A DNA stretch of 64,000 nucleotides from Gammaproteobacteria bacterium (GTDB lineage Bacteria; Pseudomonadota; Gammaproteobacteria; JAADGQ01). The notes under the pieces were generated by a model, which had not been told where the DNA came from, did not search any database, and saw nothing but the letters and a program-made list of their open reading frames with translations. Where the stretch lies: contig JAADGQ010000131.1 in assembly GCA_013152295.1 (NCBI GenBank), positions 6,219-70,218 on the forward strand, read 5' to 3'. The translations under genes were made by a program, and so were the position numbers. Position 1 is the first letter of the stretch. Each line of letters opens with the position of its first letter. This document shows, in pieces, positions 19,827 to 55,234 of this stretch.

Positions 19827-19848
19827 CGCGCCGAGGCCCTGTTAACAA

Positions 19849-21444: not shown

Positions 21445-21686
21445 ACAATCCTTGGTTAACGTTAGCAGACTGCTAGTCTATCTCGCCCCGACGCCAGGAA
21501 ACGCAACGCCAAGCACATTCACAGAACCACAGACTAAAAAGAGAGAGGTAACCACTGCTCGCAGCATGAAAACAGATTGAGGGGGATCAGCGTACACTTG
21601 CTGAGTATCGGGCGGGAAACAGCCAGGAACAGCTGTCGTAAATGGAGGAAGCGCGAAACCAGAAGCTTCGCGCTAAATGTCGAACA

Positions 21687-23057
21687 CTACGCTTTGGAAG
21701 CAGCCCCCTTGAGGCTATATTTATTCATCAACGTATACAGCGTTGGTCGACTCACACCCAGCATCTCTGCTGTCTGAGAGACATTATCGTTACATAGCGC
21801 GAGCGCCCGGCGCAGTGCTATCAACTCCGCCTCTTCCCGTACCTGGCGAAGATTAAAGGGGATCGGCTCCTCACCCGGAATATCCAGCTCTAGATCTTCT
21901 GCAACGACCTGATTTCCTTCTGCCATAATCGCTGCGCGCTTAACTCGGTTCTCCAGCTCGCGAACATTACCCGGCCAGCTATAGGCCGCCAACGCCTCCA
22001 GTGCACTGGGAGAAAAGCCGCGCAAGTTTCGACCATTTTGTTGGCCAAAGGACTCCAGAAAGACTCGCGCCAGCAACATAGCATCGCCCGTTCTCTCGCG
22101 CAGTGGTGGAATTCTGATCGTCATCTCGCTAATACGGTAGTAGAGATCCTCTCTAAACGTCTTCTCCTGAACCAACACCGGCAGATCTTGATGCGTTGCA
22201 CACACCACACGCACATCCACTGCGATCTCTTCACGGCTACCGAGGCGCTCAATCACCCGCTCCTGTAAGAACCTCAACAGCTTAGCCTGCAATGACATAG
22301 GCAGGTCGCCTAACTCATCAAGAAAAAGGGTGCCGCCATTGGCGTGTTCAATTTTGCCTTTGGTCTGTTTGGCTGCGCCGGTAAACGCCCCTTTTTCGTA
22401 GCCAAAAAGCTCACTCTCTAGCAGTGCATCGGGAATAGCTGCGCAATTGATTGCGACAAATCGTTTGCCCGCACGAGGACTTAACTCGTGCAGCGCTCTG
22501 GCCAACAGCTCTTTACCCGTGCCGCTTTCACCCAGCAGCAGCGTTGTAATATCTGTCGGCGCCACCCGCTCAATGGTTCGGCAGATCTTGAGCATCTGTG
22601 GACTGGAGGTGATCAGATTACGTAGCGGTGTATCGCCCCGCTGCCGGGACAGCTCGCGATTCTCCGTCTCCAGCGCATGCAGATGGTAGGCGCGCTCAAC
22701 GATCAGCGACAGCACATCGGGATCGATAGGTTTTTGGCAAAAATCATAAGCACCCATACCAACCGCGCGAACTGCGTTTTCCCGATCATCATTACCGGTC
22801 ACTACGATCACTTTGCAGTCCGGCGCCAGAGCCAGTATCTGTTCGATAGTCGCCAAACCCTCGCTTGCGCCATCAGGATCCGGCGGCAGTCCAAGATCGG
22901 CGGTGACGACCTGAGGTTCATAACGGCGCAAATTGGCCAGTGCGCTCTCCCGATCTCCAGCCACGCTGACTTCAAACCCGTCAAAGCACCAACGCAGTTG
23001 GTTCTGCAAACCCGGATCATCTTCGATAACCAATAATCTTTTCTTTGCTTCGCTCAA
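21687..23057 (-). CDS. prsR: PEP-CTERM-box sigma-54-dependent response regulator
   Basis: Receiver domain (LLVIEDD, phospho-Asp in VVTADLGLPPD), AAA+ sigma-54 activator (GESGTGKE, GAFTGA) and C-terminal Fis-type HTH. Confidence 0.85.
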   Translation of the reverse strand: MSEAKKRLLVIEDDPGLQNQLRWCFDGFEVSVAGDRESALANLRRYEPQVVTADLGLPPDPDGASEGLATIEQILALAPDCKVIVVTGNDDRENAVRAVGMGAYDFCQKPIDPDVLSLIVERAYHLHALETENRELSRQRGDTPLRNLITSSPQMLKICRTIERVAPTDITTLLLGESGTGKELLARALHELSPRAGKRFVAINCAAIPDALLESELFGYEKGAFTGAAKQTKGKIEHANGGTLFLDELGDLPMSLQAKLLRFLQERVIERLGSREEIAVDVRVVCATHQDLPVLVQEKTFREDLYYRISEMTIRIPPLRERTGDAMLLARVFLESFGQQNGRNLRGFSPSALEALAAYSWPGNVRELENRVKRAAIMAEGNQVVAEDLELDIPGEEPIPFNLRQVREEAELIALRRALALCNDNVSQTAEMLGVSRPTLYTLMNKYSLKGAASKA

Positions 23058-23112
23058 CGGATCACCTCTACTTCTTCCACTGATAAAAGGGGTGTTTTAC
23101 ATACACTCCATC

Positions 23113-25224
23113 TCATAATAATGCTGCAACCCCTTCTTTATCGGCCCTTGATTCATTACCGTTAGCGCTGACAGCAGGCAGCCAAATACTAAACTTTGTA
23201 CCAATATCCAGAGTGCTGTTTACCTCTATTTTTCCACCAAGTTTCTGCACAAATTCACGGCTCTCATAGACACCAATACCCATGCCTGCACTGCCCTTGG
23301 TGGAGTCAAATGGCCGAAACAGACGCTCACGAACAAATTGATGATCCATACCACTGCCGTTGTCTTCAATTTCAATCAACGCGCCGCCTTTTGAGCGCGT
23401 CAGCGTTACCTTGACCCAGCCATCATCGGGCGTCGACTCCTGTGCGTTCTGCACAAGGTGCTCGATAATGGCGACTGCCCGGTCTCGGTCCGCGCGGATG
23501 ACAATATCGTCCTCTACATGTTGAATTTGCAGAGGTGGACGACGCTTTTGAGTCAGCTCTTTCACCTCATTCAGCAGCGCCAGTAAACTTACGCCGCTGA
23601 TGACATCTGTTTTTGCCTGACCCGCACGTAACTGAGCCAACAACCGGTTCATTTTCTCCACCGAGTACGCAACTGTCGTGATCGCGTCCTCCATAAATTG
23701 TGGATTATGTTTGTGCTTTTCAGCGTTTGAGACCACTAGTGTAAGCTGCGCTGCAAGATTTTTAATGTCATGAATCACAAACGCAGACAGACGATTGAAC
23801 GCTTCGAACTGGCGCGCATCAATCAACGCCCGGTTTGCCTCTAAAAGAGCAAGGTAGCTGGCAACCTGACGACCCGCGACTCTAAGCAGGTCGATATCTT
23901 CCCAATTGAAGTGATCACCAGCGCGAGAGCGCGCCAACACCAAAAAACCAACCAACTGAGTCTGCTGCATCAGCGGCACAACCAACCAGGCGTCTTCAAG
24001 GTTTTGCAACCATTCGGGCAGATCTAAATCCCGGTACAGACCTGGATCGCGAGCGTACTCATTGACATTAACCACCCACTGCCATGTCTCCAGAAAGTGG
24101 GCCAAAGAACCGTCCGCCGATTCGCTGAGGTTGTAGTCCACTTTAAGATTGCTTGCAGTAACGGGCACAAAGTGGCCAGCTTCCTGGCGCTGCCATAAAA
24201 TACCGCCGGGGCTCTCCATAATGTTGGCAACCGCGTGAATCACCTTGCGCCGCAGCTCCTCATCAGTACCTTGCATTGACAAGGTCCGTATAAATTGCTG
24301 CCACTGCTCACGATAGTCATATTTATAGGAGTAGAAATTTTTTCCGAGAAAAACTTTCAGACGCGCCTGCAACTGACCGGAGAAAACGAAAAGGAGCAGA
24401 ACCAACACCGTACCTGAAAGGAAAGCGACCTGGGCCACCCCGCCCCAGCTACCGCCAAGAAAGCGGATGTAATAACCACCGGCAGCCATCACCAGCAGAT
24501 AGAGGCCGGCCCCAAACAGTACAGTGCTACGAAATACGAGGCGCCGCGAGACGGTAATATCGACAGCCCACTGAGGATTACGAGAGACTGATATGGCAAT
24601 GAGCGGAACAACAAGCGCATTGACAATGCCACGGGCATTCCATAAATCTGCATCAATGACATTGACCAACAGTGCATCTGAATAGAGCACAAAGTCATAC
24701 GCAAACAGGCCACCAATCCCGAAACACAAAAACTTCACGGCCCAGCGCTGATCCTTGGGTGTATTGCGGAACAGCTGCTCAATCAACACTAGCCCAATCA
24801 CCGCCAATATCACCTGACCAACGATACTGACATTCACATCGATGAGTGGCTGCAACAGCTCCCTGGCCATTTGCGGATAGAGCAGAACCAGAACCAACAG
24901 AAGACAAAACAGCGGCATAACCAGACTAACCGCTCTGATTTTTGCCGGTCCAACTTCGCCATCATGCCCAGAACGCACCAAGACAAACAGGAAGAGCAGC
25001 CAGAAAGAGCTGCGTAACACTTCGAGCAGCGACATCATCAACGAAGAGGGATAGTCCGCAGCCGCGTGATAGGCGGCCGTTACCGCCCATACCGTGGAGA
25101 TCATGGATGCAATCGCCAGAAAAACACCCTGCCTCTGCCCACGCCAACCAACGACCAGCAATAGCGTCAGTACCAAAAATGCTACCGCAGCAGCTGCGTA
25201 ACAGACCATCCCGACACTAAACAA
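23113..25224 (-). CDS. prsK: PEP-CTERM system sensor histidine kinase
   Basis: 703 aa; ~10 N-terminal TM helices, a GAF-like region, HisKA (FVIHDIKN) and HATPase_c (DNGSGMD...GMGIGV). Confidence 0.8.
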   Translation of the reverse strand: MFSVGMVCYAAAAVAFLVLTLLLVVGWRGQRQGVFLAIASMISTVWAVTAAYHAAADYPSSLMMSLLEVLRSSFWLLFLFVLVRSGHDGEVGPAKIRAVSLVMPLFCLLLVLVLLYPQMARELLQPLIDVNVSIVGQVILAVIGLVLIEQLFRNTPKDQRWAVKFLCFGIGGLFAYDFVLYSDALLVNVIDADLWNARGIVNALVVPLIAISVSRNPQWAVDITVSRRLVFRSTVLFGAGLYLLVMAAGGYYIRFLGGSWGGVAQVAFLSGTVLVLLLFVFSGQLQARLKVFLGKNFYSYKYDYREQWQQFIRTLSMQGTDEELRRKVIHAVANIMESPGGILWQRQEAGHFVPVTASNLKVDYNLSESADGSLAHFLETWQWVVNVNEYARDPGLYRDLDLPEWLQNLEDAWLVVPLMQQTQLVGFLVLARSRAGDHFNWEDIDLLRVAGRQVASYLALLEANRALIDARQFEAFNRLSAFVIHDIKNLAAQLTLVVSNAEKHKHNPQFMEDAITTVAYSVEKMNRLLAQLRAGQAKTDVISGVSLLALLNEVKELTQKRRPPLQIQHVEDDIVIRADRDRAVAIIEHLVQNAQESTPDDGWVKVTLTRSKGGALIEIEDNGSGMDHQFVRERLFRPFDSTKGSAGMGIGVYESREFVQKLGGKIEVNSTLDIGTKFSIWLPAVSANGNESRADKEGVAALL

Positions 25225-25259
25225 TGTAGAGCCCGCCTCGTTGCAATGCCGTGTATGAA

Positions 25260-26648
25260 CTAACGACTACCCTGGCGCCAGAATATGACCGGCGAAGTCT
25301 GAAAAACAATCATTAAATCGAGCAGTAAACTATAGTTTTTCACATAATACAGGTCATATTGCAGCTTTTCATAGGAGTCCTGCTCCGACGCACCATAGGG
25401 ATAACAGATCTGCGCCCAGCCCGTGATACCAGGCTTAACACGGTGGCGTTCTGCATAATAAGGGATGCTCGCAGAGAGCTGCTCAACAAATTCTGGGCGC
25501 TCGGGGCGCGGCCCGACAAAACTCATTTCACCCTTAAGTACATTGAAAATTTGCGGCAATTCATCAATACGCACTTTGCGGATAAAGTCACCAACCCGTG
25601 TAATACGGTTATCATTTTCCAGAGCCCACTGCGCACCATCCTGCGCCTCGGCATCAACACGCATACTGCGAAATTTGATCACCTGAAATAACTTCCAGTT
25701 CTGCCCCACTCGAACCTGGCGATAGAATATGGGACCGCTATCCTCAAAAAGGATGGCTAACGCCGTTAACAACATAATGGGCCAAGTCACCGCCAGCAGC
25801 AACAGAGCCGCCACGATATCAATGACTCTTTTGCTATACACACGAAAAGCACCAAAACGAAAACCATCGGAAAAAACCATCCAGCTGGGATGCATGATAT
25901 CAAGCATCACCTTACCGCGCTGACGCTCAAAGAAAGTCAACAGGTCAATAACTTCGATGCCACTCATGCGGCAGTCCAATATCTCGTGCACAGGGAAGGC
26001 CTTGCGTCGATCATCCAGCGCCTCCACAATTTCATGCGCATCATAGCGCTTGGAAATTTCCAGTAATGTGGTATCAGCATGAATAATGTTGCTGCGCTCT
26101 ACAAGCTCTTCACCACCCATTGAGACATAGCCAACGACAACGAATCCGCGGCGATCCAGCTTTCTGCGCAATCGCTCATTGATACTTTTTGCACGCGCTC
26201 CGGCACCCAGCACCAAGACGCGCCGCTGCAGTGCGTCTTGGTCAACCAGCTTGAAAAATATCGCGCGTGCAGCGACCACACAGATAAAAGCAAAAAAGAG
26301 CGCAATACCGAAAGCACCGCGCCCCAAAAACATACTGGGAAATGCGTAGAATATCAGCGACATCAAGGCGAACCCGAGCAGGAAGCCAGCGCCCAAACGC
26401 AGCAGCATTCCCGAAAACCCTTCCCGCAGCTGACGCTGGTACAGACCCATGGCGGTATTAATACTAACCATGAGCAACATAAACAGTGTTGCTTTAAAAA
26501 ATATCGGTTCGATGCCAGGCGGAAGCTCCTCTTCCCCCCAAAACCGTAGTGCAACACCCAGGTAAATGGAGACAAAAAAGAGAGCAGCTTCCACCAATCC
26601 CAAAAATACAAAATATTTCGGTATGTAGTGCCTGAATACTCGGAGCAT
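25260..26648 (-). CDS. PEP-CTERM-associated undecaprenyl-phosphate sugar phosphotransferase (EpsB/WbaP-like)
   Basis: Five TM helices, central Rossmann-like domain and C-terminal bacterial sugar transferase motif (DELPQIFNVLKGEMSFVGPRPERPEF). Confidence 0.85.
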   Translation of the reverse strand: MLRVFRHYIPKYFVFLGLVEAALFFVSIYLGVALRFWGEEELPPGIEPIFFKATLFMLLMVSINTAMGLYQRQLREGFSGMLLRLGAGFLLGFALMSLIFYAFPSMFLGRGAFGIALFFAFICVVAARAIFFKLVDQDALQRRVLVLGAGARAKSINERLRRKLDRRGFVVVGYVSMGGEELVERSNIIHADTTLLEISKRYDAHEIVEALDDRRKAFPVHEILDCRMSGIEVIDLLTFFERQRGKVMLDIMHPSWMVFSDGFRFGAFRVYSKRVIDIVAALLLLAVTWPIMLLTALAILFEDSGPIFYRQVRVGQNWKLFQVIKFRSMRVDAEAQDGAQWALENDNRITRVGDFIRKVRIDELPQIFNVLKGEMSFVGPRPERPEFVEQLSASIPYYAERHRVKPGITGWAQICYPYGASEQDSYEKLQYDLYYVKNYSLLLDLMIVFQTSPVIFWRQGSR

Positions 26649-33178: not shown

Positions 33179-33772
33179 CTATCTATTTAAAAAAGGGGGA
33201 TATGTTGCAGCTCGACGGCGAGCGACGAGACCCATCCCCACCAAACCAAGCCCCATAATTGCGAGAGTGCCAGGCTCAGGCACACCAATCTGGGTCACCT
33301 GTCCACTGGACTGCGCCAGGTTAAAACCATAGCCGGTAACATTAGCAGCCGATGGACTACCGACGGCGCCAACCCCAAAATCCAAGGCTAACGCCGCAGT
33401 ATCGTACTGATCAATGGTGAAAGCACTGCCACTCACTCTACCGCCAGTGGTATCGACATAGAGGTAGGCGTCGATGGATTCGCCGCCCACATTATCATTC
33501 GTCAAATAGAGTTTAATACCACTGAAGCCGCTAAAATCGAGCGACCCGGCAACGCCGAAGTCGGCTTGGTTAGCGCCCACTCCAGACCATGTGGTGGTTA
33601 GATCTCCGCCGTCGGTGACGCCAATCGACACAACGATGGGATCACCACCCTGATATTCAAAATCAGCCAGCTGCTCAGCGGAGTATGTAAAATTCGCCGC
33701 TTGCACAGACGAGATAGAGAAAAAACAGACCAGCAAGGCGCAACCCATTGCAAGAATATGGCGTTTAATCAT
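33179..33772 (-). CDS. PEP-CTERM sorting-domain secreted protein (putative exosortase substrate)
   Basis: Signal peptide (CALLVCFFSISSVQA), Gly/Asp/Thr-rich body, C-terminal VPEPGTLAIMGLGLVGMGLVARRRA (PEP motif, TM helix, Arg cluster) with an unusual 9-aa extension. Confidence 0.8.
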   Translation of the reverse strand: MIKRHILAMGCALLVCFFSISSVQAANFTYSAEQLADFEYQGGDPIVVSIGVTDGGDLTTTWSGVGANQADFGVAGSLDFSGFSGIKLYLTNDNVGGESIDAYLYVDTTGGRVSGSAFTIDQYDTAALALDFGVGAVGSPSAANVTGYGFNLAQSSGQVTQIGVPEPGTLAIMGLGLVGMGLVARRRAATYPPFLNR

Positions 33773-33874
33773 GATTTGAATTCCTTCGGATACGAGGAGT
33801 TAGCTTAATTTTTTAAAAATTATCGCCCGAATTTCTGATAAACCGGCGACTTGATTCGTTGTTGTGCAAATAAA

Positions 33875-33889
33875 GCAAATACTTTGCCA
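33875..33889 (-). promoter_or_regulatory. sigma-54 (-24/-12) promoter TGGCAAAGTATTTGC upstream of the PEP-CTERM protein gene
   Basis: Minus-strand reading gives TGGCA-N6-TTGC with correct GG/GC spacing, ~100 nt upstream of the ATG at 33772. Consistent with control by the sigma-54 activator PrsR. Confidence 0.5.
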
Positions 33890-33926
33890 GCTTTTTAGCT
33901 TTTTGTTTTTATAGGATATTTAATCG

Positions 33927-33943
33927 CATTCAGTGACTGAATG
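33927..33943. promoter_or_regulatory. perfect 8-1-8 palindrome CATTCAGT-G-ACTGAATG, candidate enhancer-binding-protein site
   Basis: Located ~40 bp upstream of the -24 element relative to transcription direction. Confidence 0.35.
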
Positions 33944-34217
33944 TGGGTGTATTGTAAAGAAAACCAACACCACAAACGACTACACTGCAATGCCTCAATA
34001 CAGCATCCCGGCGTTCGGCCAGCTCGACTCGAAACTCCTCTGAAATGACAATGTCATCTGTGCGCATTTGCCCTCAAGGGCAGCAAACGTGCATCGGCAA
34101 GCCATGATATGATTACTTATTCGGTAGCTGAAAAGTAACGCGATAGATCAGGGGGGGCTCGTTCCCTCCGCGAAGCTAAAAAACGGTCGACATCAAACGA
34201 CCGCGCAGGATGAAATC

Positions 34218-35537
34218 ATGAGCGGCACAAGTCAATCTCGAATTAAAATTCCGGTCGTCATAGAAGGGCGCTCGTCTACGCCATACAAAGGCTTGCGCTG
34301 GAAAAATCGGGCCGCCCGTTACGGGGTCATCATTTTGGCGATTTTGATTCCGTTATCGGGTCTGTTTCGCATCGACGTGTCATCAGGCTTTATCATCCTC
34401 TCTCGGCAGGTCTGGTTTTCTGATTTTTTTCTGGTATTTGGCCTCTGGCTAGCGCTCGTCAGCTTGATCATCATGTTCTACTCAACGCTAGGCACTGCTT
34501 TTTGTGGCTGGGTCTGCCCACAAAATACGCTCTCATCCTGGGCCGATTCGGTCACACAGAAGCTTCTAGGCAAGCGCGCCGTCGTTGATTGGGAAAAGAG
34601 CGCGGGAGGAAAAGTCGCCGCCGCCAAAAACAGATGGGGAAACTGGCTGCTACTGGTGCTCAAATTAGTAGCAGCATCGATGCTGATTGCACTGATCCCT
34701 CTACTCTATTTCAACACCCCTGGTGCGATGTGGTCGTTTGTCACCTTTCAGGCTAACGATCAACTGGCGGGCTCTCTGCACTGGATATACCTGGTTTTTG
34801 TCTTCATCATTTTTGTCAACATTGCAGTGGTACGCCACTTTATGTGCCGCTACATGTGTTTCTATCGCATGTGGCAATTTCTGTTTAAAACGCGCGATAC
34901 GCTGCACGTAGAATACGATGAATCACGAGCGGATGAGTGCCGCAAATGCAACTACTGCGTCACGTCATGCATGGTCGGCATTGATCCCCGCAAGACGCAA
35001 ACATATGACAGCTGCACTAACTGTGGTGAGTGTTTGAGCGCCTGTGCGTCACTTCAAGCCAAAAGCGGAAAAAGCGGCCTGCTCAGCTTCAAATTCGGAC
35101 CACGCAGAAGTGAGCGCTTGCAGGTTGCTGAACAAACTAAACTGGCATCGATCTCCAGCCGCTTGAAGTGGGTATCCCCCGTATTTCTGCTCGGCACCGC
35201 CCTTTTTGTATGGGGATTGTGGTCATACCAGCCTTATCACTTCACGGTGTATCGAGCAGAGATGCAGCAGCGTGGCCAAATCGACAACTACCGTATCAAT
35301 ATCGCAAATAAGATCTACCATCCGGTGAACTTCACCATTGATATCGAAGGGATCGACAAAGCGCTGTACGAGATCGACACTACATCGATCAATCTTTCCA
35401 GTGCCGGTCGCAGCGATGCTCTGCTGCACATAAAAGAGGGCCTGCCAGGCGGCGTACATACGTTTACGGTGCGGGTGAGCTCTGACGATGGTTGGAGCAA
35501 CTCCTATAGAATGCAGCACATTGTAAAGAGAGGTTGA
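34218..35537 (+). CDS. CcoG/FixG/RdxA-family polyferredoxin membrane protein
   Basis: CGWVCPQNT motif after TM helices; two CxxCxxCxxxC-like 4Fe-4S clusters (CRKCNYCVTSC, CTNCGECLSAC); C-terminal Ig-like FixG_C domain. Confidence 0.8.
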   Translation: MSGTSQSRIKIPVVIEGRSSTPYKGLRWKNRAARYGVIILAILIPLSGLFRIDVSSGFIILSRQVWFSDFFLVFGLWLALVSLIIMFYSTLGTAFCGWVCPQNTLSSWADSVTQKLLGKRAVVDWEKSAGGKVAAAKNRWGNWLLLVLKLVAASMLIALIPLLYFNTPGAMWSFVTFQANDQLAGSLHWIYLVFVFIIFVNIAVVRHFMCRYMCFYRMWQFLFKTRDTLHVEYDESRADECRKCNYCVTSCMVGIDPRKTQTYDSCTNCGECLSACASLQAKSGKSGLLSFKFGPRRSERLQVAEQTKLASISSRLKWVSPVFLLGTALFVWGLWSYQPYHFTVYRAEMQQRGQIDNYRINIANKIYHPVNFTIDIEGIDKALYEIDTTSINLSSAGRSDALLHIKEGLPGGVHTFTVRVSSDDGWSNSYRMQHIVKRG

Positions 35538-35538
35538 T

Positions 35539-35985
35539 ATGAGTGAGCAGAATCAAAACGGCAACAACAAAATCCCCCTGAAACCCACCACCAAAGTTGG
35601 CTGGGGAGAAACAGCTGCGGATAACTTTGGTTATGAGAGCGATGCCGAACGCATCAGCAAGCGCGGCCTGGAAGATTGGGAAATGCTTGAAAAGATGGAT
35701 GAATCTGACAACGCCATCCCCTACTGGTTTGTTGCCATCTTTATCGTGCTACTGCTCGTCGCGGTTGGCCTAACCTTTCCATTTTGGGGTGTGCGCTCCG
35801 GCTACGAACGCGACTGGTTCGACTGGGGTATCGTCGCAGGGGTTGCGTGGTGTGTGGCAATGGCTGCGCTGATCTATTACTTCGTGGATTACCGCTACCA
35901 GCACGCTGAAAAAGTGGCCAAAAAAGATGCCAACAACAGCCCTGATAACAACTCAGACAAAAACACAGCGGTACCGAAAGAGTGA
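35539..35985 (+). CDS. hypothetical two-TM membrane protein
   Basis: 148 aa; tightly coupled (1-nt gap) to the CcoG-like gene; hydrophobic segments IPYWFVAIFIVLLLVAVGL and IVAGVAWCVAMAALIYYF. Confidence 0.5.
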   Translation: MSEQNQNGNNKIPLKPTTKVGWGETAADNFGYESDAERISKRGLEDWEMLEKMDESDNAIPYWFVAIFIVLLLVAVGLTFPFWGVRSGYERDWFDWGIVAGVAWCVAMAALIYYFVDYRYQHAEKVAKKDANNSPDNNSDKNTAVPKE

Positions 35986-36020
35986 CAAACACGCAAACTA
36001 ACAGAACACGCGATCGCGTG

Positions 36021-36332
36021 ATGAGTGGTTATTTGGGTTGGGTGACTGTGGCTATTAGCACGATGCTGCTGGTGGGCTGTTCCCTAGAAAATGAGGGTTC
36101 ACCACGCAAAGCACTGCCTGAAAGCAACTCGCCAGGCGCGCAACTGTTGAAGAAATTTTGCTCCAATTGCCACGCCCCACCACAACCTGCGATCCACAAC
36201 CATGGTGAGTGGAAAAATATTGTGCTGCGCATGGAGGATCATCGAATCATGAATGGCGAAGAGCACATGACGGCATCTCAAATTGAGCAGTTAAGCGGTT
36301 ATTTAGACAAACATGCCGGAGGATCCAGGTAG
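36021..36332 (+). CDS. mono-haem c-type cytochrome lipoprotein
   Basis: Lipobox MLLVGCS; single CSNCH haem-binding motif. The ORF could start at GTG 35982, but the lipoprotein signal begins at ATG 36021. Confidence 0.65.
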   Translation: MSGYLGWVTVAISTMLLVGCSLENEGSPRKALPESNSPGAQLLKKFCSNCHAPPQPAIHNHGEWKNIVLRMEDHRIMNGEEHMTASQIEQLSGYLDKHAGGSR

Positions 36333-36334
36333 AG

Positions 36335-36781
36335 ATGAGGTACCTTGCAAGATTATTCATCGTGGCAGGAGTGTTGACAGGATTAGGTGGCTGCTCCGAC
36401 GAAGTTACACCCAGACTCGGCCCACAACAGTGGCAAGATATTGTCTTTCTGGTAGAGACGCGCCCACCACAGCTCCGCATCGGAATGAATGAGTTTTTGG
36501 TGCTTGCGAGCATCGACGGGCACAAACCCGCTCATGACATGATTCTCTCGTTTCGGCTTAACGGCGAAGGAAAATGGCAGCAGGCCATACAAGACGGCTA
36601 TGTTGGTGTTTACCGTAAAGCGATACGAGTTAACGATATCGAGAACGACGTGCTGGAGGTACGGGTTGAGCGCTATGTCGAAGGTCAAAACGAAAGGGAT
36701 CTGACGCTGCTGCGCTTTCCATTGCGCCAACAAACAGAGAAGAGAGCGCCAACGCCTACCAGCGAAACGGCAAAAGACTGA
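36335..36781 (+). CDS. hypothetical periplasmic lipoprotein (beta-rich, possibly FixH/Ig-like)
   Basis: Lipobox LTGLGGCS; no recognisable motifs; last gene of the four-gene operon. Confidence 0.45.
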   Translation: MRYLARLFIVAGVLTGLGGCSDEVTPRLGPQQWQDIVFLVETRPPQLRIGMNEFLVLASIDGHKPAHDMILSFRLNGEGKWQQAIQDGYVGVYRKAIRVNDIENDVLEVRVERYVEGQNERDLTLLRFPLRQQTEKRAPTPTSETAKD

Positions 36782-40245: not shown

Positions 40246-40614
40246 ATGGCAACAGAGATATTGCTTATCGAGGATCACCCGGATAATCGGGATATGCTGG
40301 CACGCCGTTTAACGCGGATTGGCTACACTGTTCACACCGCTGTCAATGGCGAAGAGGGTGTTCAAGCTGTATATGATCGACCACCTGAGTTGATCCTAAT
40401 GGACGTCAGCATGCCAATCATGGATGGTATCGAAGCAACGCGCCACATCAAATCAGACCCTGACTACCAACATATTCCTATCATTGGTATCAGCGGCCAT
40501 ACTTTGAGTGAAGAGAGGGAGAGGATGTTTGCTGCCGGCGCAAATGATTACACGCACAAGCCGATCGATTTTAACAAGCTGTCAATCTGTATTAAGCAGT
40601 GGCTTAGCCACTGA
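40246..40614 (+). CDS. single-domain CheY-like response regulator
   Basis: ILLIEDHPDNRDML, phospho-acceptor in LILMDVSMP, conserved T/S and K positions; no output domain. Confidence 0.85.
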   Translation: MATEILLIEDHPDNRDMLARRLTRIGYTVHTAVNGEEGVQAVYDRPPELILMDVSMPIMDGIEATRHIKSDPDYQHIPIIGISGHTLSEERERMFAAGANDYTHKPIDFNKLSICIKQWLSH

Positions 40615-40666
40615 GTGAGTATTGATGAGAAGCGCGAATTAATTTAATGGTTGAGTGGACGAAAAA

Positions 40667-40696
40667 GCGCCCTGATTCGTTAACGAATCAGGGCGC
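40667..40696 (-). terminator. strong intrinsic terminator (13-bp perfect stem GCGCCCTGATTCG-ttaa-CGAATCAGGGCGC, T-tract on the minus strand)
   Basis: Convergent intergenic region between the cheY-like gene and the roadblock gene. Confidence 0.6.
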
Positions 40697-40731
40697 ATGA
40701 ACAACGGTTACTGTATTTTGTCAGCGCTTAA

Positions 40732-41103
40732 TCAGTGCAGTAGTTCTTCAGTTACATCAATGGCGGCGCGTTGAATCTCATTCGAGACCAACCCCAGTTC
40801 GGCGTTGGCTTTGATAATGGTGGCAACGACAGCATCGTCGCCCGCGTGGGTGATCATCATGCAACCAGCCTCCCCGCTTACAACAATCTGCTTCATGGTA
40901 CCACCGCATATCAGTTCGATCATGGCCTGATCGCCTAGCGATACGATAGCGGCGCTCACCGCTCCCAAGCGGTCTTCATCCATATCGGTCGGCAGTTGAG
41001 AAGCCATGACCAAGCCGTCGATCGACATAATTGCCGATGCTTCAATATCCGGTGACTCTTTGTTCAGATCAACAAGAATAGATTGCAGAGCTGTGTGATT
41101 CAT
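40732..41103 (-). CDS. Roadblock/LC7 (MglB-like) domain protein
   Basis: 123 aa with the alpha-beta-alpha roadblock pattern (AIMSIDGLVMAS...GAVSAAIVSLG...VVSGEAGCMMITHAG). Confidence 0.75.
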   Translation of the reverse strand: MNHTALQSILVDLNKESPDIEASAIMSIDGLVMASQLPTDMDEDRLGAVSAAIVSLGDQAMIELICGGTMKQIVVSGEAGCMMITHAGDDAVVATIIKANAELGLVSNEIQRAAIDVTEELLH

Positions 41104-41176
41104 CGAAAACCCCCGTGGTTTTTTTAATTCTCCGAAAGTTAACCTGGCAACCTACATCATCGAATAAAAAGCGATG

Positions 41177-41752
41177 TTAGGCCGCCTCAATTTTGCGGGC
41201 GATGTCAGCATACACCGTCTTGAGCATATTCCTCATCAGTGGTGGCGTCCACCCCGTCGCCTGTAGCAGCCCTTTTTTACGCCCCTCATCAACCAGCGTC
41301 GTCGTCAACGCAACGGTTGCATCGACAACATGCTGAAAAGCAAGGAAAAGCCTGACCCCTTCGTCTGCTCCTAGTTCACTCACCATCGCCTGTAGAAAAA
41401 ACTCACGAGAACGGCTGGCCATGGTCAGCATGTAACGATTGGGCACTTCTCGACGAATGTGCGCCAAACCGATCAGGTACTGTTTTTTCCAGAATTCGTC
41501 ATCGTCATGCCCCTCAACAAGGCTTAACACCCACTTGCGCAACGTATCCTCAACCGCTGGCCGCTCCCCTTCGCGGAAAATTTCACGGGGGCCCTCGTTG
41601 TCGTAAATCGTATCGTAGAAGTGCTTAACAAAGCCCTCCAAATTACTTGTAAAGAAGTCCGTATGCTTTTTGAGAAGGGCAAAGTCACCTTCCGAAACGG
41701 AAATGACTGCATGGACTTCCCTCAGATAGAGTCCAAAATTTTGTTCACTCAT
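41177..41752 (-). CDS. protoglobin-domain protein (single-domain sensor globin)
   Basis: Globin-coupled-sensor-type globin fold with putative proximal His in LIGLAHIRREVPNRYM. Start taken as MSEQNFG (41752); the ORF extends to 41881. Confidence 0.65.
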   Translation of the reverse strand: MSEQNFGLYLREVHAVISVSEGDFALLKKHTDFFTSNLEGFVKHFYDTIYDNEGPREIFREGERPAVEDTLRKWVLSLVEGHDDDEFWKKQYLIGLAHIRREVPNRYMLTMASRSREFFLQAMVSELGADEGVRLFLAFQHVVDATVALTTTLVDEGRKKGLLQATGWTPPLMRNMLKTVYADIARKIEAA

Positions 41753-41984
41753 TTGCGACAATCTCCCGCGTGCGCTTGCCTGGGGCCATCTAAAAAGATG
41801 GCTCAGAGCGTGTGTCAAATATCCATGATGGCGACCATTCCGTTCAGCGTGTACAGCTGCGAGCTGTCCCACGGCGGCCAATAACGATGGGGCTTAACAA
41901 GAGCAGCTAACGCTCCACAGCACGGTGGAACATAACTACATGCATAGTGTTGTTATCGTCCGCTGGATCGTTAACTTTAGCGAC

Positions 41985-45411: not shown

Positions 45412-46599
45412 TCACTGGATGTTGCTGATGTGAGCGACACCTCCGAAGCTACCGATCCAGACGCTGCCGTCTGCAGCATCGCTCATTGAGAAGACGTTAT
45501 CGGCATAGAGACCATCGGCACGAGTCAGCACAGAGAAGCCGCTACCCTGTTTATTAAAATAGGCCAAGCCGTTACTGGTGCCGATCCAGATCCGACCATT
45601 GGGCGCACGGTGCAACATAAAAATGTGGTTCGCAGGGAGGCCATCTACGGTGGTGTAGTTGCGCCAGCTTTTACCATCGAAACGTGCCAAACCGCCACCC
45701 CAAGTGCCGCACCAGACAACGCCTTGGCTATCTACTGCAAGCGAGATGATGTAGTTGGGATTATAGGCGACTTTGACATCAGACAGACCCTGCTCAGCTT
45801 TCTGTCGGGCGTGATGTGAGGAGGCTTGCGCCGGATCGTTGGTAAATTGAATGGTCTCTTTTACCACGTCGTAGGGTGCTCCCAACCCGTCATCATGTTT
45901 CCAGTTAACCCAGCTACCATCCCTATACCGCGCCAGCCCATCTTCGGTAGCGAACCAGATATCACCGTTCAAACCCTCTTCAAGGCCGTAAACCCATGGG
46001 TTCGGCAGCCCGCCATCGGTGTTTTCAACGGTAAATGATTGCCAGCTATCTGGGTCTTCGAGCACGCCGCCTTTAATACGATTAACCCCCGACCAGGTTG
46101 CAATCCAGATATCGCCGTTGGAAACTTTCTTGACATCATAGACAAACTGATCGGCAAGTCCTTCGGGAATATTATAGTTCTTCCATTTATCGGCACTGAT
46201 GTCGTAAACCGACAGGCCGCCACCGTAGGTGCCAAGGTAGATCCGCTCATCAATTCTGCTAACGTGAAAAATACCGTTAGAGAGAATACCGCTGACTTTG
46301 TTGTCGAAAACCTTGTAGCTGTCATCTCGGGTATCGTAGCGAATGACGCCTCCGGAAGTACCGATCCAGACGTAGTGACCCTCGGCATGTATCGATTTAA
46401 CGTTGCTGTTGCCCACCTCAAATTGAGCAAAGTGGTTGTTGCTCGGCATCTGCTGTTTGTGTTGTGCCGTCGAAGCGTTGGCTGTACCGCTGCTGGTCGT
46501 TGTATTGGTTTCGCTCGGTGAACAGGCGATGAGGGCAGTAGCCATTGCTAGCAGCCCCGTCGCGATGATGACGCGTTTATTGATCCAACCCTGACTCAT
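45412..46599 (-). CDS. secreted two-component-regulator-propeller (Reg_prop) beta-propeller lipoprotein
   Basis: Signal/lipobox (LLAMATALIACS). At least six WxGT/WIGT repeats (VWIGTSGG, IWIATWSG, IWFATEDG, VWCGTWGG, IWIGTSNG, VWIGSFGG). Confidence 0.75.
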   Translation of the reverse strand: MSQGWINKRVIIATGLLAMATALIACSPSETNTTTSSGTANASTAQHKQQMPSNNHFAQFEVGNSNVKSIHAEGHYVWIGTSGGVIRYDTRDDSYKVFDNKVSGILSNGIFHVSRIDERIYLGTYGGGLSVYDISADKWKNYNIPEGLADQFVYDVKKVSNGDIWIATWSGVNRIKGGVLEDPDSWQSFTVENTDGGLPNPWVYGLEEGLNGDIWFATEDGLARYRDGSWVNWKHDDGLGAPYDVVKETIQFTNDPAQASSHHARQKAEQGLSDVKVAYNPNYIISLAVDSQGVVWCGTWGGGLARFDGKSWRNYTTVDGLPANHIFMLHRAPNGRIWIGTSNGLAYFNKQGSGFSVLTRADGLYADNVFSMSDAADGSVWIGSFGGVAHISNIQ

Positions 46600-47789
46600 T
46601 GCTTGTTATCCGCTTGTTGAGGTGTATTGCCAATGCGCACAACGCCGCTACGTGTTCCAGCCCAAATCTCACCGTCTGCGGTTGTAGCTACTGAGTAGAC
46701 GCTCTCACCAAGCAGCCCGTTGCTTCGGTCAAGGGTAATCCAAGATGTTCCATCGAAGCGCGACAATCCTTTGTTAGTGCCAAACCAAAGCGCACCCTGA
46801 CGATCTTCCGCGATGCTGAAGACAATATCGCCAGCAAGGCCATCCTCAGAGGAGAAACTTTGCCACTGTTTACCGTCGAAACGGCTGACGCCACCACCCC
46901 AGGTACCCGCCCAGATTGAGCCATCATCAGCCTTGTGGTGTATCGAAAAGACATAAGAGGGGTTGTAAGTAGGGCGCCCTTCAGTGAGCACGCTCAGGTT
47001 GTGTCGTGAGCGAGTGCCGAGCCCGGTGTTGATGCTGAGCGGCAGACTGCCCCGGTTATCGGCACCAAGGCCATCGGCGTGGGTCCACGCTTGCCACTGC
47101 ATGCCGTCAAACATTGAGACGCCACCCTCTGTGGCAAACCAGACGCGCTCTTGTGCATCCACAGCGATACCGTAGACCCACTCGTTAACGAGTTCTTCAA
47201 CGTAGTTGGTTAATTCGCCGCTGCTGCCATCCAGGCGGCTGGCGCCTGCCCAGGTGCCAACCCACAGCGTATTATCAGATTGCTGTGCGAAAGCATAAAC
47301 CCAGTAGTCGGCCAGTCCGTGCATGGGAAAGTAAGTTTTCCACTTGTCATCGCGATAGCGCGACATGCCGCCGCCGTTGGTGCCAAACCAAGTTGCGCCG
47401 CTATTATCGGTGAGAATACTGAACACGTATTCGTTGGCCAGGCCGTGTTCTCGGGTGAAGGTGTTGAGGACGTTTTGATCTTTTAAGTCGACCTCGATGA
47501 CGCCGACGGATGAACCAACCCACAACCGCTTGCGCTTTTCATCCACGTTGAGTGCGCGCACATAGACCTCTTTGCCCACATCAAAAGCGTCGAGAACGCG
47601 AAAATTGTGCGCTTTGATCTGTTTGTTAGCGCTGCTCTCCGCCGGATTTTTAACTTGAGCAACGCTTGTTGGTTGCGTGGTGGTTGCTTGCTGCTGCGCC
47701 GTGGCAGGAGGTTCGCTATTCTGTTCCGAGCAGGATGCCAACATCAAAGAGATACACAGCAACGCAACAGAAAGAACAGCTGCACGCAT
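46596..47789 (-). CDS. secreted Reg_prop beta-propeller protein (paralogue of the gene above)
   Basis: Signal peptide with lipobox (LMLASCSE); repeats LWVGSSVG, TWFGTNGG, LWVGTWAG, VWFATEGG, IWAGTWGG, LWFGTNKG, IWAGTRSG. ATGA overlap with the downstream propeller gene. Confidence 0.75.
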   Translation of the reverse strand: MRAAVLSVALLCISLMLASCSEQNSEPPATAQQQATTTQPTSVAQVKNPAESSANKQIKAHNFRVLDAFDVGKEVYVRALNVDEKRKRLWVGSSVGVIEVDLKDQNVLNTFTREHGLANEYVFSILTDNSGATWFGTNGGGMSRYRDDKWKTYFPMHGLADYWVYAFAQQSDNTLWVGTWAGASRLDGSSGELTNYVEELVNEWVYGIAVDAQERVWFATEGGVSMFDGMQWQAWTHADGLGADNRGSLPLSINTGLGTRSRHNLSVLTEGRPTYNPSYVFSIHHKADDGSIWAGTWGGGVSRFDGKQWQSFSSEDGLAGDIVFSIAEDRQGALWFGTNKGLSRFDGTSWITLDRSNGLLGESVYSVATTADGEIWAGTRSGVVRIGNTPQQADNKQ

Positions 47790-48103
47790 CAGCGCAACGT
47801 CCTCAGATAAGCAATCACGTCAAGCATCTCCGTCTCATTCATACGCCCCATGAACGCAGGCATCATCCCCTTTCCCGCTTTCAGCACAGAGAGCAGCCCA
47901 ATATCGGACTGCAGCAACCCTTCACCACGCGTGAAATCGGGCACTCCGGGAATGGCACCACGGCCACCGCTGCCATGACAGCCTGTGCAGTAGCGATTGT
48001 ATTTTTTGGCTCCCTCACCAGGGTTGCCAGCATGTGCGACACCGCTCAGCAGAAAAGCGAGCAAGACGACCATCAAATTTATTTTGGCTGTGTGGTTTTT
48101 CAT
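47789..48103 (-). CDS. periplasmic class I c-type cytochrome (c553/c6-like)
   Basis: 104 aa from MKNHTAKINLMVVLL (signal peptide) with a single CTGCH haem site and distal Met (GKGMMPAF). Its stop overlaps the propeller start by 1 nt. The listed ORF extends upstream to 48253. Confidence 0.75.
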   Translation of the reverse strand: MKNHTAKINLMVVLLAFLLSGVAHAGNPGEGAKKYNRYCTGCHGSGGRGAIPGVPDFTRGEGLLQSDIGLLSVLKAGKGMMPAFMGRMNETEMLDVIAYLRTLR

Positions 48104-48170
48104 CTCCCATCCCTCCTTAATTTTGCGCTGCATCTTATTGCTTTTATCATTTTTGTGGGCCAGAGCAAAG

Positions 48171-48707
48171 CTACTGCGCACTGATCGGCAATGTTCCATC
48201 ATAAGCAGCTTCGAGCATCTCAATCGTTGCTGGGTCGTGCCACTGTCGCGCACCGATAATCTGGCGCAGCAAAACCCCGTCTCGGGAGATCAAAAACGTG
48301 CTTGGGTATGCGCTGATAGCCAACTGCTGCTGAGCAATCGCCATTGTCTTATCGATAAAGCTCATCAGCCTGACCCCTCTATCGATCAGGTATTCACGCA
48401 CCGGCAGCTCATCATCGTCTACCGACATGAGCAGCACCGCAAAACGCTCTCTGTCCAACGCACCCATCAGTTTTTCAAGGCTGGGTAACTCACTGCGACA
48501 TGGCGCGCACCAAGTCGCCCAGACGTTGAGCATGACGACTTTGCCACGATACTGCTCAAGCGGGGTCTGGCTTCCATCTAGTCCCGTCAACATGATCGCG
48601 GGAAAACGCTTCCCCTCAATGAGTCCCTTTTCAGGGGGCGGCGGCTCGCTGCATGCTGAGGCAGCCAATAACGTGATTAACAACAGCAGAAGCCTGCAGC
48701 GTCTCAT
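48171..48707 (-). CDS. TlpA/ResA-family periplasmic thiol:disulfide oxidoreductase
   Basis: Signal peptide and WATWCAPCRSE thioredoxin-fold active site. Confidence 0.8.
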   Translation of the reverse strand: MRRCRLLLLLITLLAASACSEPPPPEKGLIEGKRFPAIMLTGLDGSQTPLEQYRGKVVMLNVWATWCAPCRSELPSLEKLMGALDRERFAVLLMSVDDDELPVREYLIDRGVRLMSFIDKTMAIAQQQLAISAYPSTFLISRDGVLLRQIIGARQWHDPATIEMLEAAYDGTLPISAQ

Positions 48708-48748
48708 CTATTAGCGACCAATGTTAGCGGCCAGTTTTTCCCGTTGAT

Positions 48749-50035
48749 TTACGGCACTATCTGATCGATAACGATGGTCACGTCGTCGCTACCAACCGGC
48801 ACATTTGCCGCGATGCCTTGCAGATCACCACTGGCCGATGATGCATCGCCGCTACGCGAGACGCGAGCGACAAGAATAACGTTTTGGTGGTCTGACAACT
48901 TCAGTGACGGCATCAACGCAGTCGTGTCATCCAGCGTAAAAGTTACGGGCAGCTCTTTGAGCTGTTTGCGCACAATAGCGACCGGCATGCGTGCATTTTC
49001 ATCGGTGCGAGCAAAGATGAACACAGTGTCATCGGGCTCTGCTTTGCCCAGCAAATCGGGATTCAGCTCAACACGGCCCGAGATCTGAGTCGTGCGATCT
49101 GCTTCGCCTAGTGTGTCTTGAGTGACATCGCCGGACTGAGAGGCATCACCAAACGTTGGCGGCGCAGCATTACCCGTAGCCAGGTGACGTGCCTGGGCAA
49201 TGTTACCTTCGATAATCCCCGCGTCTTCCGAGCCCGGCGTCAGTAGCGTCAGCAACTTCTCCCAGTAAGGAATGGACGCGAGAAAGTTACCCCGGTCAAA
49301 TTCGTAGGTGGCGGATAACCACAACCCCTTGCCGTTGTTGGGGTCGAGCTCCAGAGCACGACGTATCAACGTGATCGGCCTGCCTTCGAGGCTTTCGTTG
49401 TTGCTGCTCATAGCCAGTGCATCGGCATAATCGAGGAGCAAATTGGGATCATTGGGACCGACCAGTTTAACGACGTTGCCATACGCGTTGGCTGCCTCCG
49501 CAAAGCGGCGCAGGGCAAAATAGGAGCGGCCGAGCATGTTCCAACCATCCACGTCATCGGGATTCTCGTGCATGCGCTGCTCCAGAGCCGCCACCATCGC
49601 CTCGATCTGACCCGGCAAATTATGGTCCGCTGTGTTCGGCGCAGCTATCTCGGCAGGCTGCTCCGCAAACGCCTGCGGATTGCCCAACGTCTGATAAAGC
49701 GTAATGGCAAGTGCAGGAACCGCCACCGCGACCAGCACAGCGGTGATCAAAGAGGGCTTTCTCTCGGTCTTTGTTTCGACAGCGGCGCTACTGTCACCGA
49801 TATCCTCAAGCATCCGTTTTTGCAGGTCCGCACGCGCCTGATTGAGACGAATATCACTGAGCGTGCCCTGCTCCAGGTCTCTATCGAGGTCGGCAAACTG
49901 CTCTTTGTAGATGGATACGTTAACCGCAGTGCGATCGACTTCAGCCTTTGCAGAGCCACGCCGCAGCATGGGGGGGAGCAGAAAAAACAGGGCAACTGCA
50001 ATAAATCCAGCAGCCACCATCCAAAAAACCATCAT
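48749..50035 (-). CDS. ccmI: c-type cytochrome biogenesis protein CcmI (CycH)
   Basis: N-terminal TM hairpin (FWMVAAGFIAVALFFLLPPML) and C-terminal TPR region. Last gene of the ccm cluster. Confidence 0.8.
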   Translation of the reverse strand: MMVFWMVAAGFIAVALFFLLPPMLRRGSAKAEVDRTAVNVSIYKEQFADLDRDLEQGTLSDIRLNQARADLQKRMLEDIGDSSAAVETKTERKPSLITAVLVAVAVPALAITLYQTLGNPQAFAEQPAEIAAPNTADHNLPGQIEAMVAALEQRMHENPDDVDGWNMLGRSYFALRRFAEAANAYGNVVKLVGPNDPNLLLDYADALAMSSNNESLEGRPITLIRRALELDPNNGKGLWLSATYEFDRGNFLASIPYWEKLLTLLTPGSEDAGIIEGNIAQARHLATGNAAPPTFGDASQSGDVTQDTLGEADRTTQISGRVELNPDLLGKAEPDDTVFIFARTDENARMPVAIVRKQLKELPVTFTLDDTTALMPSLKLSDHQNVILVARVSRSGDASSASGDLQGIAANVPVGSDDVTIVIDQIVP

Positions 50036-50508
50036 GCCTTATCTCTCCCGATATCCTCATTTAGCAGCTGATCAACGCGTTCACGCTCCTCCTTGGTGAG
50101 CACGGTTTCGGTGCCGCGTGCCCGGCGCCGTTTGAGCACCACAAACAGAACCGTCGCGCCGATCAACAACATGCCCAGCGGCCCCAGCCACAACAGCATC
50201 GTGGTGCTATTGAAGGGAGGACGGTAGCGAACAAAATCACCGTAACGTTCGACCAAATAGTCGACAATCTGCTGGTCACTCCATCCAGATTTCATTTTGT
50301 CGCGCACTTCATTGCGCATATCAATAGCAAGCTCAGCGTGGGAAGCTGCCACAGACTGATTCTGACAAACGAGACAGCGCAGCTCTTTGCTGAGTGCCAT
50401 CACCCGTTTCTCCAGCACCGGATCTTCGGCCATGGGGGTCGCTTCATTTGCCACGACCGCGCCAGACAGCAACCCTGCAATCAATATGAGAGGTATCAGT
50501 ATTTTCAT
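50032..50508 (-). CDS. ccmH: cytochrome c-type biogenesis protein CcmH
   Basis: LRCLVCQNQSV (LRCxxC) motif. Confidence 0.85.
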   Translation of the reverse strand: MKILIPLILIAGLLSGAVVANEATPMAEDPVLEKRVMALSKELRCLVCQNQSVAASHAELAIDMRNEVRDKMKSGWSDQQIVDYLVERYGDFVRYRPPFNSTTMLLWLGPLGMLLIGATVLFVVLKRRRARGTETVLTKEERERVDQLLNEDIGRDKA

Positions 50509-50527
50509 TCCATTAACTCTATTGGTG

Positions 50528-51061
50528 TTAGCTCTCTAGCTTCAGCTTTTTAATCAGGGGGATGATGGTTTCGTCCAGTGCTTTTCGCGTTACCGGACCA
50601 ATCTGCTTGTAGCGGATTGTGCCATTCTGGTCGATGAGGTAGGTCTCTGGAACGCCGTATACGCCGTAATCGAAACCAACTTTGCCTTCCACATCCTGAG
50701 CACTCAACACGTAGGGGTTGCCAAGCTGACGTAGCCAGCGGATGGCATCCGTCCGTTTATCTTTGTAGTTGAGACCATAGATCGGAACAATGTTCTGTTT
50801 GGCAAGCGCGATCAGCAGCGGGTGCTCGGCACGGCACGAGACGCACCACGATGCCCACACATTGAGCAGCCACACTTTGCCAGCCATATCGCTACGCGAG
50901 AATGTTTTTTCTGGCTGGTGCAACTGGCTGAGTTGAAACGCAGGCGCAGCTTTGTCAATCAACGGTGAAGGAACGTTGCGTGGATTGAGATCCAGCCCAA
51001 TCAGCAAAAACACGGCGATACCGATAAAAACGGCGAGCGGGGCAATAAAACGAATCATCAA
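50528..51061 (-). CDS. ccmG: thiol:disulfide interchange protein DsbE/CcmG
   Basis: WASWCVSCRAEHP active site and GVYGVPETYLID motif. Confidence 0.9.
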   Translation of the reverse strand: MMIRFIAPLAVFIGIAVFLLIGLDLNPRNVPSPLIDKAAPAFQLSQLHQPEKTFSRSDMAGKVWLLNVWASWCVSCRAEHPLLIALAKQNIVPIYGLNYKDKRTDAIRWLRQLGNPYVLSAQDVEGKVGFDYGVYGVPETYLIDQNGTIRYKQIGPVTRKALDETIIPLIKKLKLES

Positions 51062-53097: not shown

Positions 53098-53142
53098 GGT
53101 CAGCGTGTCCTTTTATATTGTCGCGCTTAACTTGTCGCTTAT

Positions 53143-53761: not shown

Positions 53762-53763
53762 GG

Positions 53764-54522: not shown

Positions 54523-54554
54523 AATTGGCGATACAACCCGTTATCGTAATCTTT

Positions 54555-55229: not shown

Positions 55230-55234
55230 GGTTA

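Follow-up and report, generated by a model that had tools for sequence, protein, structure and literature searches.

A CcoG-like four-gene operon as a probable accessory module of a divergent CcoNO-only cbb3-like oxidase

The DNA analyzed was a 64-kb stretch of contig JAADGQ010000131.1 from a Gammaproteobacteria bacterium (assembly GCA_013152295.1), hereafter called the window, and the subject of the analysis was a set of four genes within it, here termed W1 to W4 (Table 1). The set was read as a CcoG-centered accessory module of a divergent CcoNO-only cbb3-like oxidase, probably acting in copper handling or biogenesis and detached from the oxidase genes in this contig, and a probability of roughly 0.55 was assigned to this reading. 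It is carried by the CcoG architecture of the W1 protein and by the association of related sets with an oxidase operon in other genomes. The module is not a new system, as the gene set has already been noted in the literature, where it is uncharacterized, and the window itself adds only its detached arrangement.

Four open reading frames (ORFs), all on the + strand, were found at 34218–36781, and they are real genes forming one operon. When the junctions were read directly, a 1-nt spacer was found between W1 and W2, a GTGA stop/start overlap between W2 and W3, and a 2-nt spacer between W3 and W4. The tight coupling described in the original prediction, which had been made from the sequence of the window alone, was thus confirmed. 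Moreover, every junction carries a purine-rich stretch resembling a ribosome-binding site, and these stretches together with the tight junctions make translational coupling in one operon plausible. An ATG at 36021 is an alternative start for W3. Upstream of W1, AGGA stands 8–11 nt 5′ of the ATG; a consensus scan of the 445-nt region 5′ of the gene showed no sigma-70-like site, and the scan for promoters and terminators gave nothing interpretable. A cluster look-up of the window proteins W1 and W2 led to protein accessions NOY63193.1 and NOY63194.1.

Table 1. Features of the four-gene operon in the window (positions count from the first nucleotide of the window).
Feature	Position	Strand	Description
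Intergenic region, 445 nt	33773-34217	no strand	5′ of W1; presumed operon promoter region
W1	34218-35537	+	CcoG/FixG-subfamily membrane polyferredoxin, 439 aa
W2	35539-35985	+	Two-transmembrane-helix membrane protein, 148 aa, highly conserved
W3	35982-36332	+	Monoheme c-type cytochrome lipoprotein, 116 aa from GTG start; facultative
W4	36335-36781	+	Predicted periplasmic lipoprotein, 148 aa, CopC/CrdA-like β-sandwich fold in the model

CcoG architecture of W1

The best NCBIfam family for W1 was ccoG_rdxA_fixG (TIGR02745; 112.1 bits, E=3.1e-32). In Pfam, Fer4_5 and Fer4_18 matched above threshold, and FixG_C fell just under it. As the NCBIfam score lay under the equivalog cutoff, W1 is a member of a distinct subfamily or a paralogue rather than an equivalog; judging from its sequence and its structure model, it has the full CcoG/FixG architecture. 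The original prediction had called W1 a CcoG homologue, and both the family match and the architecture agreed with this.

Hydropathy analysis gave five transmembrane (TM) helices (residues 36–54, 70–88, 144–162, 187–205, and 316–334), and the loops 1–35, 89–143, and 206–315 were rich in K/R. By hydropathy and the positive-inside rule, the N-terminus, the 89–143 loop with C96xxxC100, and the 206–315 domain, which carries C210xxxC214 and two CxxCxxCxxxC [4Fe-4S] motifs, were predicted to be cytoplasmic, while residues 335–439, the C-terminal immunoglobulin (Ig)-like FixG_C domain, were predicted to be periplasmic. Both [4Fe-4S] motifs and both CxxxC motifs would then lie on the cytoplasmic side, with the Ig-like domain alone in the periplasm. 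An AlphaFold model built with 59 sequences (predicted local distance difference test score, pLDDT, 83) showed the same helices and layout; its C-terminal β-sandwich was very confident, and the top structural match was the solved FixG C-terminal domain. The periplasm-facing character that had been proposed for the set therefore became doubtful.

The residues expected of a polyferredoxin are strictly kept. C96/C100, C210/C214, C241/244/247/251, and C266/269/272/276 were invariant in 59 W1 relatives. On aligning W1 with a bona fide Paracoccus CcoG (Paracoccus ferrooxidans pFER4, locus L086), the identity was 25% and all 12 cysteines aligned. W1 and the CcoG/FixG/RdxA family thus have in common the five TM helices, the cytoplasmic domain with two CxxCxxCxxxC motifs, the CGxxCPQ motif (CGWxCPQ in W1), a second CxxxC motif (CRYMC in W1), and the C-terminal periplasmic Ig-like domain. 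Unlike canonical CcoG, W1 has another residue in place of the Pro that follows the second CxxxC (CRYMC[IVF]Y vs. CVYACPW). Sequence searches of the PDB were run for W1, W2, and W3; W1 matched generic ferredoxin domains only, and W2 and W3 had no meaningful match.

Conservation of the set and its linkage to an oxidase operon

Hundreds of W1 relatives at 50–63% identity were obtained in a homologue search, from Thiotrichaceae, Halothiobacillaceae, Thiohalomonadales, Rhodocyclaceae, and unclassified Gammaproteobacteria, and when a single genome was scanned for each species, 237 genomes contained a W1 relative. The linkage counts rest on 80 loci fetched out of these 237 species-level genomes, among them Candidatus (Ca.) Tenderia, Sideroxydans, Gallionellaceae, and metagenome-assembled genomes (MAGs) from biocathodes. 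Using tblastn, W2 was found directly after W1 in all loci (85/85), and W4 followed in all 81 loci whose contig reached far enough; the relatives were approximately 38 to 65% identical to the window proteins at the amino acid level. Since W2 and W4 are conserved beside W1, they are real genes and not chance ORFs. The original prediction had stated that the two small partners have no obvious family, and Pfam and NCBIfam scans likewise placed them in no curated family at the sequence level.

In the first three relatives inspected, the set lay directly downstream of a conserved oxidase operon. Over the 80 loci, the set was physically joined to a divergent ccoN-ccoO operon in 60. This operon was immediately upstream on the same strand in 39 of them and convergent, 3–11 kb downstream, in 8; in the other 13, the contig end cut the region with the expected nearest gene visible. 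Six loci had 10 kb on both sides and no oxidase operon, and 14 were too short to judge. Accordingly, the earlier claim that the set is uncoupled from any cbb3 oxidase held for this contig but not for the module itself. Pfam scans covering essentially all large ORFs of the window detected no COX1, FixO, or FixP and no P-type ATPase, so that oxidase and P-type ATPase genes were absent within 34 kb upstream and 27 kb downstream of the operon, and neither ccoNOQP nor ccoI was found in the operon itself. The stand-alone placement in the window is a minority arrangement, rarer than the linked one.

A comparison of two loci illustrates how the arrangement can change. Downstream of the set, locus L003 and locus L085 (the same genome region as L014) are alike, with GGDEF, threonine-dehydratase-like, rpiA, and DUF2905 genes. 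Upstream of the set, L003 has the whole ccoN/ccoO-like operon, whereas L085 has genes for ribosomal protein L31, a nuclease, and malic enzyme. As the difference lies upstream only, the four-gene set has stayed in place while the oxidase operon next to it was gained or lost.

The linked operon encodes, in order, a CcoN-like protein, a FixO/CcoO-like protein, an approximately 210-aa membrane protein, several small membrane proteins, a monoheme cytochrome, an FGE-sulfatase-domain protein, and an approximately 870-aa MFS/spermidine-synthase fusion. It has no ccoP and no ccoQ, so that, compared with canonical cbb3, the oxidase linked to the set is CcoNO-only. The CcoN-like protein matched COX1 with 258 bits, scored 227 bits with TIGR00780 against a cutoff of 583, and was approximately 29% identical to canonical CcoN. 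It keeps the residues aligned to H122, H271, Y315, H321/H322, and H409/H411 of Paracoccus CcoN, which we take to be the heme and CuB ligands and the cross-linked tyrosine. Since these are retained, the oxidase would still need copper insertion. From its CcoNO-only composition, it probably corresponds to the "distal" type of Ducluzeau et al., the "distal" cbb3 of iron- and sulfur-oxidizing and electroautotrophic Proteobacteria. The "distal" cbb3 genes are highly expressed in Sideroxydans ES-1, and this CcoNO-only region is highly expressed in iron oxidizers (PMC8788666).

Two further features were observed around the linked sets. The usual gene immediately upstream of the set (L001:4879-7503 and equivalents) is the MFS/spermidine-synthase-family fusion (NF037959). 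The cbb3 copper importer CcoA is an MFS protein, and by analogy the fusion could be part of the same copper-supply route. Downstream of the set, a convergent pair (e.g., L001:10349-11373, minus strand; L004:10509-11551) encodes an approximately 166-aa PF20603 "Bact_hydrolase" protein and a 175-aa protein whose similarity to COX1/CcoN is confined to the C-terminal part of the latter (profile positions 345–413). The pair was present in 38 of the 51 loci with enough downstream sequence and absent in the window.

The same gene order has been described before. In Ca. Tenderia electrophaga, Eddie et al. (2022; bioRxiv 10.1101/2022.05.06.490989) reported a conserved 26-gene "cbb3-1/cbb3-2" region in which genes 10 and 11 are CcoN and CcoO, and genes 21 to 26 are a "CcoG cbb3 maturation protein", a hypothetical protein, a monoheme cytochrome, two hypothetical proteins, and a truncated CcoN. 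Genes 21–24 (ALP51739.1 to ALP51742.1) have the same order of gene types as W1–W4; this equivalence rests on gene order and on the Ca. Tenderia MAG loci L060, L070, L071, and L081, not on alignment of the ALP sequences. Most fetched loci also have the same upstream genes as the Ca. Tenderia region (CcoN, CcoO, small membrane proteins, monoheme cytochrome, FGE-sulfatase-domain protein, and large fusion) and the same downstream pair of a hypothetical protein and a truncated CcoN. In contrast, the window has no contiguous CcoN/CcoO, FGE-sulfatase, MFS/spermidine-synthase fusion, or truncated CcoN, and CcoH, CcoI, and CcoS are likewise absent from it. The region had previously been seen in freshwater iron oxidizers according to Eddie et al. 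(2022), and the earlier sighting is taken to be the suite of 20 common genes that Emerson et al. (2013; PMC3770913) found in both Sideroxydans ES-1 and Mariprofundus PV-1. Moreover, most Tenderiales have no canonical FixG while FixHIS is kept (Eddie et al., 2022), which leaves room for a W1-type paralogue to fill the FixG role.

The nearest canonical system is ccoGHIS of Rhodobacter capsulatus and Bradyrhizobium, which, like the set, normally lies just downstream of the oxidase genes and can be unlinked. The canonical layout ccoNOQP-ccoG-fixH-ccoI-ccoS was seen in the P. ferrooxidans locus L086, and the window does not match it. Instead of CcoH, CcoI, and CcoS, the partners of W1 are a two-TM protein, an optional cytochrome c, and a lipoprotein.

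The partner proteins W2, W3, and W4

W2 has two hydrophobic helices by hydropathy, and its family alignment shows the motifs KRGLEDWE, IPYWF-TM1-FPFWGxRPGYE, and WFDWG-TM2. Its conservation equals that of W1, with a mean column identity of 51%. When the W2 profile was compared with that of the approximately 210-aa protein whose gene directly follows ccoO in the linked operon, hhalign gave a probability of 95.4% (E=1.9e-8), and the match spanned the N-terminal segment, TM1, and the PxWGxRP motif. On this profile match, W2 is a paralogue of that membrane protein, and the description of the set as self-contained was weakened accordingly.

Several other identities were tried for W2 and rejected. 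Sub-threshold matches to Ni_hydr_CYTB (cytochrome b561) occurred in 31 of 36 relatives, but the family has no conserved His, so that these matches do not imply heme and W2 was not taken as a b-type cytochrome. As an N-terminal anchor of CcoP, it was rejected because FixP_N matched weakly and under threshold in just 4 of the 36 relatives and hhalign against canonical CcoP was negative. As CcoH/FixH, W2 had no match to Pfam FixH (PF05751) and an hhalign probability of 0.3% against Paracoccus FixH. The result for W4 was the same on both counts, and a FixH/CcoH identity was rejected for it as well at the sequence level.

W3 carries the lipobox LVGC and the heme motif CSNCH. Across 51 homologues, the pattern C..CH..P.P...W...RM was conserved, with the distal RM invariant approximately 20 residues after CxxCH. 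Because these homologues were picked by CxxCH, the Met conservation is the sole independent evidence for a class I c-type cytochrome; Pfam cytochrome-c models matched W3 under threshold only. A relationship of W3 to the monoheme cytochrome inside the oxidase operon was rejected on comparison. A CxxCH ORF between W2 and W4 was found in 51 of 81 loci, and in the rest the gap was too short or held no such ORF; the cytochrome was absent in the Thiotrichaceae-type relatives, those closest to the window. The core therefore consists of three genes, W1, W2, and W4, with an optional cytochrome. The heme-c lipoprotein named in the original prediction is present in the window but facultative in the set, and W1-W2-(W3)-W4 is conserved as a unit.

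W4 carries the lipobox LGGC and has no Pfam match. Its model (pLDDT 90.5) is a β-sandwich, and on structure comparison the nearest solved folds were periplasmic Cu- or Fe/Cu-binding proteins. Across 49 sequences, M51 is the single invariant Met and no His is invariant, so that W4 shares the fold of CopC/CrdA only; it is thus modeled as a CopC/CrdA-like β-sandwich without the known copper ligands. CrdA is a CopC/PcoC-type protein that binds copper via a Met-rich loop (PMC9182242). The periplasmic β-sandwich (cupredoxin-like or Ig-like) is common to W4, to CopC/PcoC/CrdA, and to the P19/FtrA/Tp34 family. However, W4 differs from these proteins in that it lacks both a Met-rich loop of the MxxMPGM type and a His brace and does not match Pfam CopC; it is also lipoprotein-anchored and belongs to a small, isolated family, for which a profile search run exhaustively over 1.84 billion proteins yielded just 105 representatives. 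A touch on YtkA-like was seen in 5 of the 49 relatives, at E 0.006 or weaker. The possibility that W4 is a duplicate of the W1 Ig domain was rejected on comparison. The original prediction had asked whether the 148-aa proteins are FixH- or CopC-like; a CopC-like fold was obtained for W4, and neither W4 nor W2 is FixH-like in sequence.

Proposed role and alternative readings

In the accessory-module reading, W1 would take electrons on the cytoplasmic side via its two [4Fe-4S] clusters and, by analogy with Rhodobacter CcoG, reduce Cu(II) to Cu(I), which would be supplied for the CuB site of the oxidase. CcoG of R. capsulatus, the only one for which this activity is known, reduces Cu(II) specifically and carries two [4Fe-4S] clusters, and its Ig-like domain has no assigned role (PMC7558416). 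W2 may dock the module to the oxidase or to assembly intermediates via the N-terminal helix it has in common with the operon-encoded protein, and W4, together with the dispensable W3, may assist from the periplasmic side, in a chaperone or redox function. In the window, the module would be separated from its oxidase genes, as ccoGHIS genes are scattered in Campylobacter jejuni; ccoG/I/S genes can lie apart from ccoNOQP (PMC8267372).

Several observations weigh against this reading. No oxidase gene occurs anywhere across the window, and in at least two lineages (the window; L014/L085) the set is retained in surroundings of 10–34 kb that contain no oxidase genes. No CcoI-type ATPase, CcoH, or CcoS stands beside the set in any locus examined, and W2 and W4 have no detectable similarity to FixH or CcoP. 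W1 is just 22–27% identical to canonical CcoG and scores far under the TIGR02745 equivalog cutoff of 316.7 bits, so its substrate could differ. Moreover, W4 has none of the CopC/CrdA copper ligands.

Rather than assembly factors, W1–W4 could also be subunits that work in the divergent oxidase, or its dedicated partners in electron transfer, with W2 replacing the missing CcoP/CcoQ anchor, W3 serving as the heme of electron entry, and W1 tying the complex to the cytoplasmic redox pool. Eddie et al. (2022) proposed a membrane complex for the whole region, "a sort of alternative complex IV" that would include assembly helpers. The absence of ccoP and ccoQ from the linked operon, the paralogy of W2 to an operon-encoded membrane protein, the few sub-threshold FixP_N matches in the W2 family, and the conservation of W2 as strong as that of W1 all fit such a role. 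However, W3 is missing in 30 of the 81 loci and cannot be an obligatory electron entry, and the comparison of W2 with canonical CcoP was negative. The set also behaves as a separate mobile unit, being convergent with the oxidase operon or unlinked from it in at least 14 loci, which is more typical of accessory operons, and the Fe-S domain of W1 is predicted to be cytoplasmic. CcoG is not known to have a role in turnover, which was also counted against this explanation. A subunit role was considered doubtful.

The original prediction had taken the set for a self-contained, oxidase-independent module of periplasmic electron transfer or metal reduction, e.g., a NapH/NosH-like quinol-linked polyferredoxin feeding the heme-c lipoprotein. 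In the window and in L014/L085, the set does stand by itself, surrounded by unrelated housekeeping or signaling genes; two of the partners are periplasmic lipoproteins, one of them with heme, and electron transfer in the periplasm is elaborate in the hosts, which are lithoautotrophs. NapH/MauN (TIGR02163) is also the second NCBIfam match of W1, and NapH/MauN/NosH and W1 have in common a CxxxCP membrane motif of the Fer4_5 type and, on the cytoplasmic side, a ferredoxin domain with two clusters. However, the score of 52.7 bits is far under the cutoff of 213; NapH/MauN proteins have four TM helices and no Ig domain, whereas W1 has a fifth helix and FixG_C. No nap, mau, or nos genes were found near W1 in the window. 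With ccoN/ccoO-like genes physically linked to the set in three of every four loci, W2 paralogous to an oxidase-operon protein, the Fe-S clusters predicted on the cytoplasmic side, and the heme protein dispensable, this explanation seems unlikely. An autonomous redox or copper-handling module that needs no divergent oxidase was judged improbable as well. Here, the window and L014/L085 genomes would have no CcoNO-only oxidase, and W1-W2-W4, with or without W3, would relay reducing power from the cytoplasmic Fe-S clusters to a periplasmic target. If so, the target could be copper for other cuproenzymes or another metal, and the CcoG family would have a new physiological role in lithoautotrophs.

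The CcoNO-only region is conserved in electroautotrophs and comes with roughly 20 experimentally uncharacterized accessory genes. Among these, the CcoG-like set is delimited here as a separable module with a three-gene core and an optional cytochrome, containing a paralogue of an oxidase-operon protein (W2) and a predicted copper-chaperone-like fold without known ligands (W4). These features give concrete hypotheses for CuB loading in this class of oxidase.

Surroundings of the operon in the window

Upstream of the operon are exosortase/PEP-CTERM and sugar-nucleotide genes, of which a divergent PEP-CTERM gene (33179-33772, minus strand) directly adjoins the intergenic region of W1. Downstream, a convergent hybrid histidine-kinase gene ends 27 nt past W4, followed by signaling genes and a protoglobin gene, with a ccm cytochrome c maturation cluster 12–19 kb away. 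Save for generic signaling domains, no flanking genes are common to the window and the other loci.

The PEP-CTERM/exosortase system extends over 16968-26648 (minus strand) and includes the PEP-CTERM gene next to the operon; its parts comprise a 952-aa TPR protein, an exosortase EpsH-DUF3485 fusion, a sigma-54 response regulator, a GAF histidine kinase, and a sugar transferase. The cytochrome c maturation cluster (45412-55852, minus strand) is extended by unusual added genes. Two "Reg_prop" β-propeller proteins, a c-type cytochrome (47789-48253), and a thioredoxin-like protein (48171-48707) are encoded directly upstream of ccmI/H/G/F and ccmC/B/A. The stretch 40246-41881 groups a protoglobin-domain protein (41177-41881, minus strand) with a Roadblock/LC7 protein and a single-domain response regulator, possibly as a globin-coupled sensing unit; several conserved globins were reported in Tenderiales (Eddie et al., 2022). 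A 395-aa ORF (9784-10971, minus strand) with no Pfam match at E 1e-5 or better adjoins a gene of the CptA/YgfX-like membrane toxin family (11012-11485). Finally, the gene at 1844-4066 (minus strand) encodes a 740-aa protein in which a VTT/DedA membrane domain is fused to a pyridine-nucleotide-disulfide oxidoreductase with its dimerization domain.

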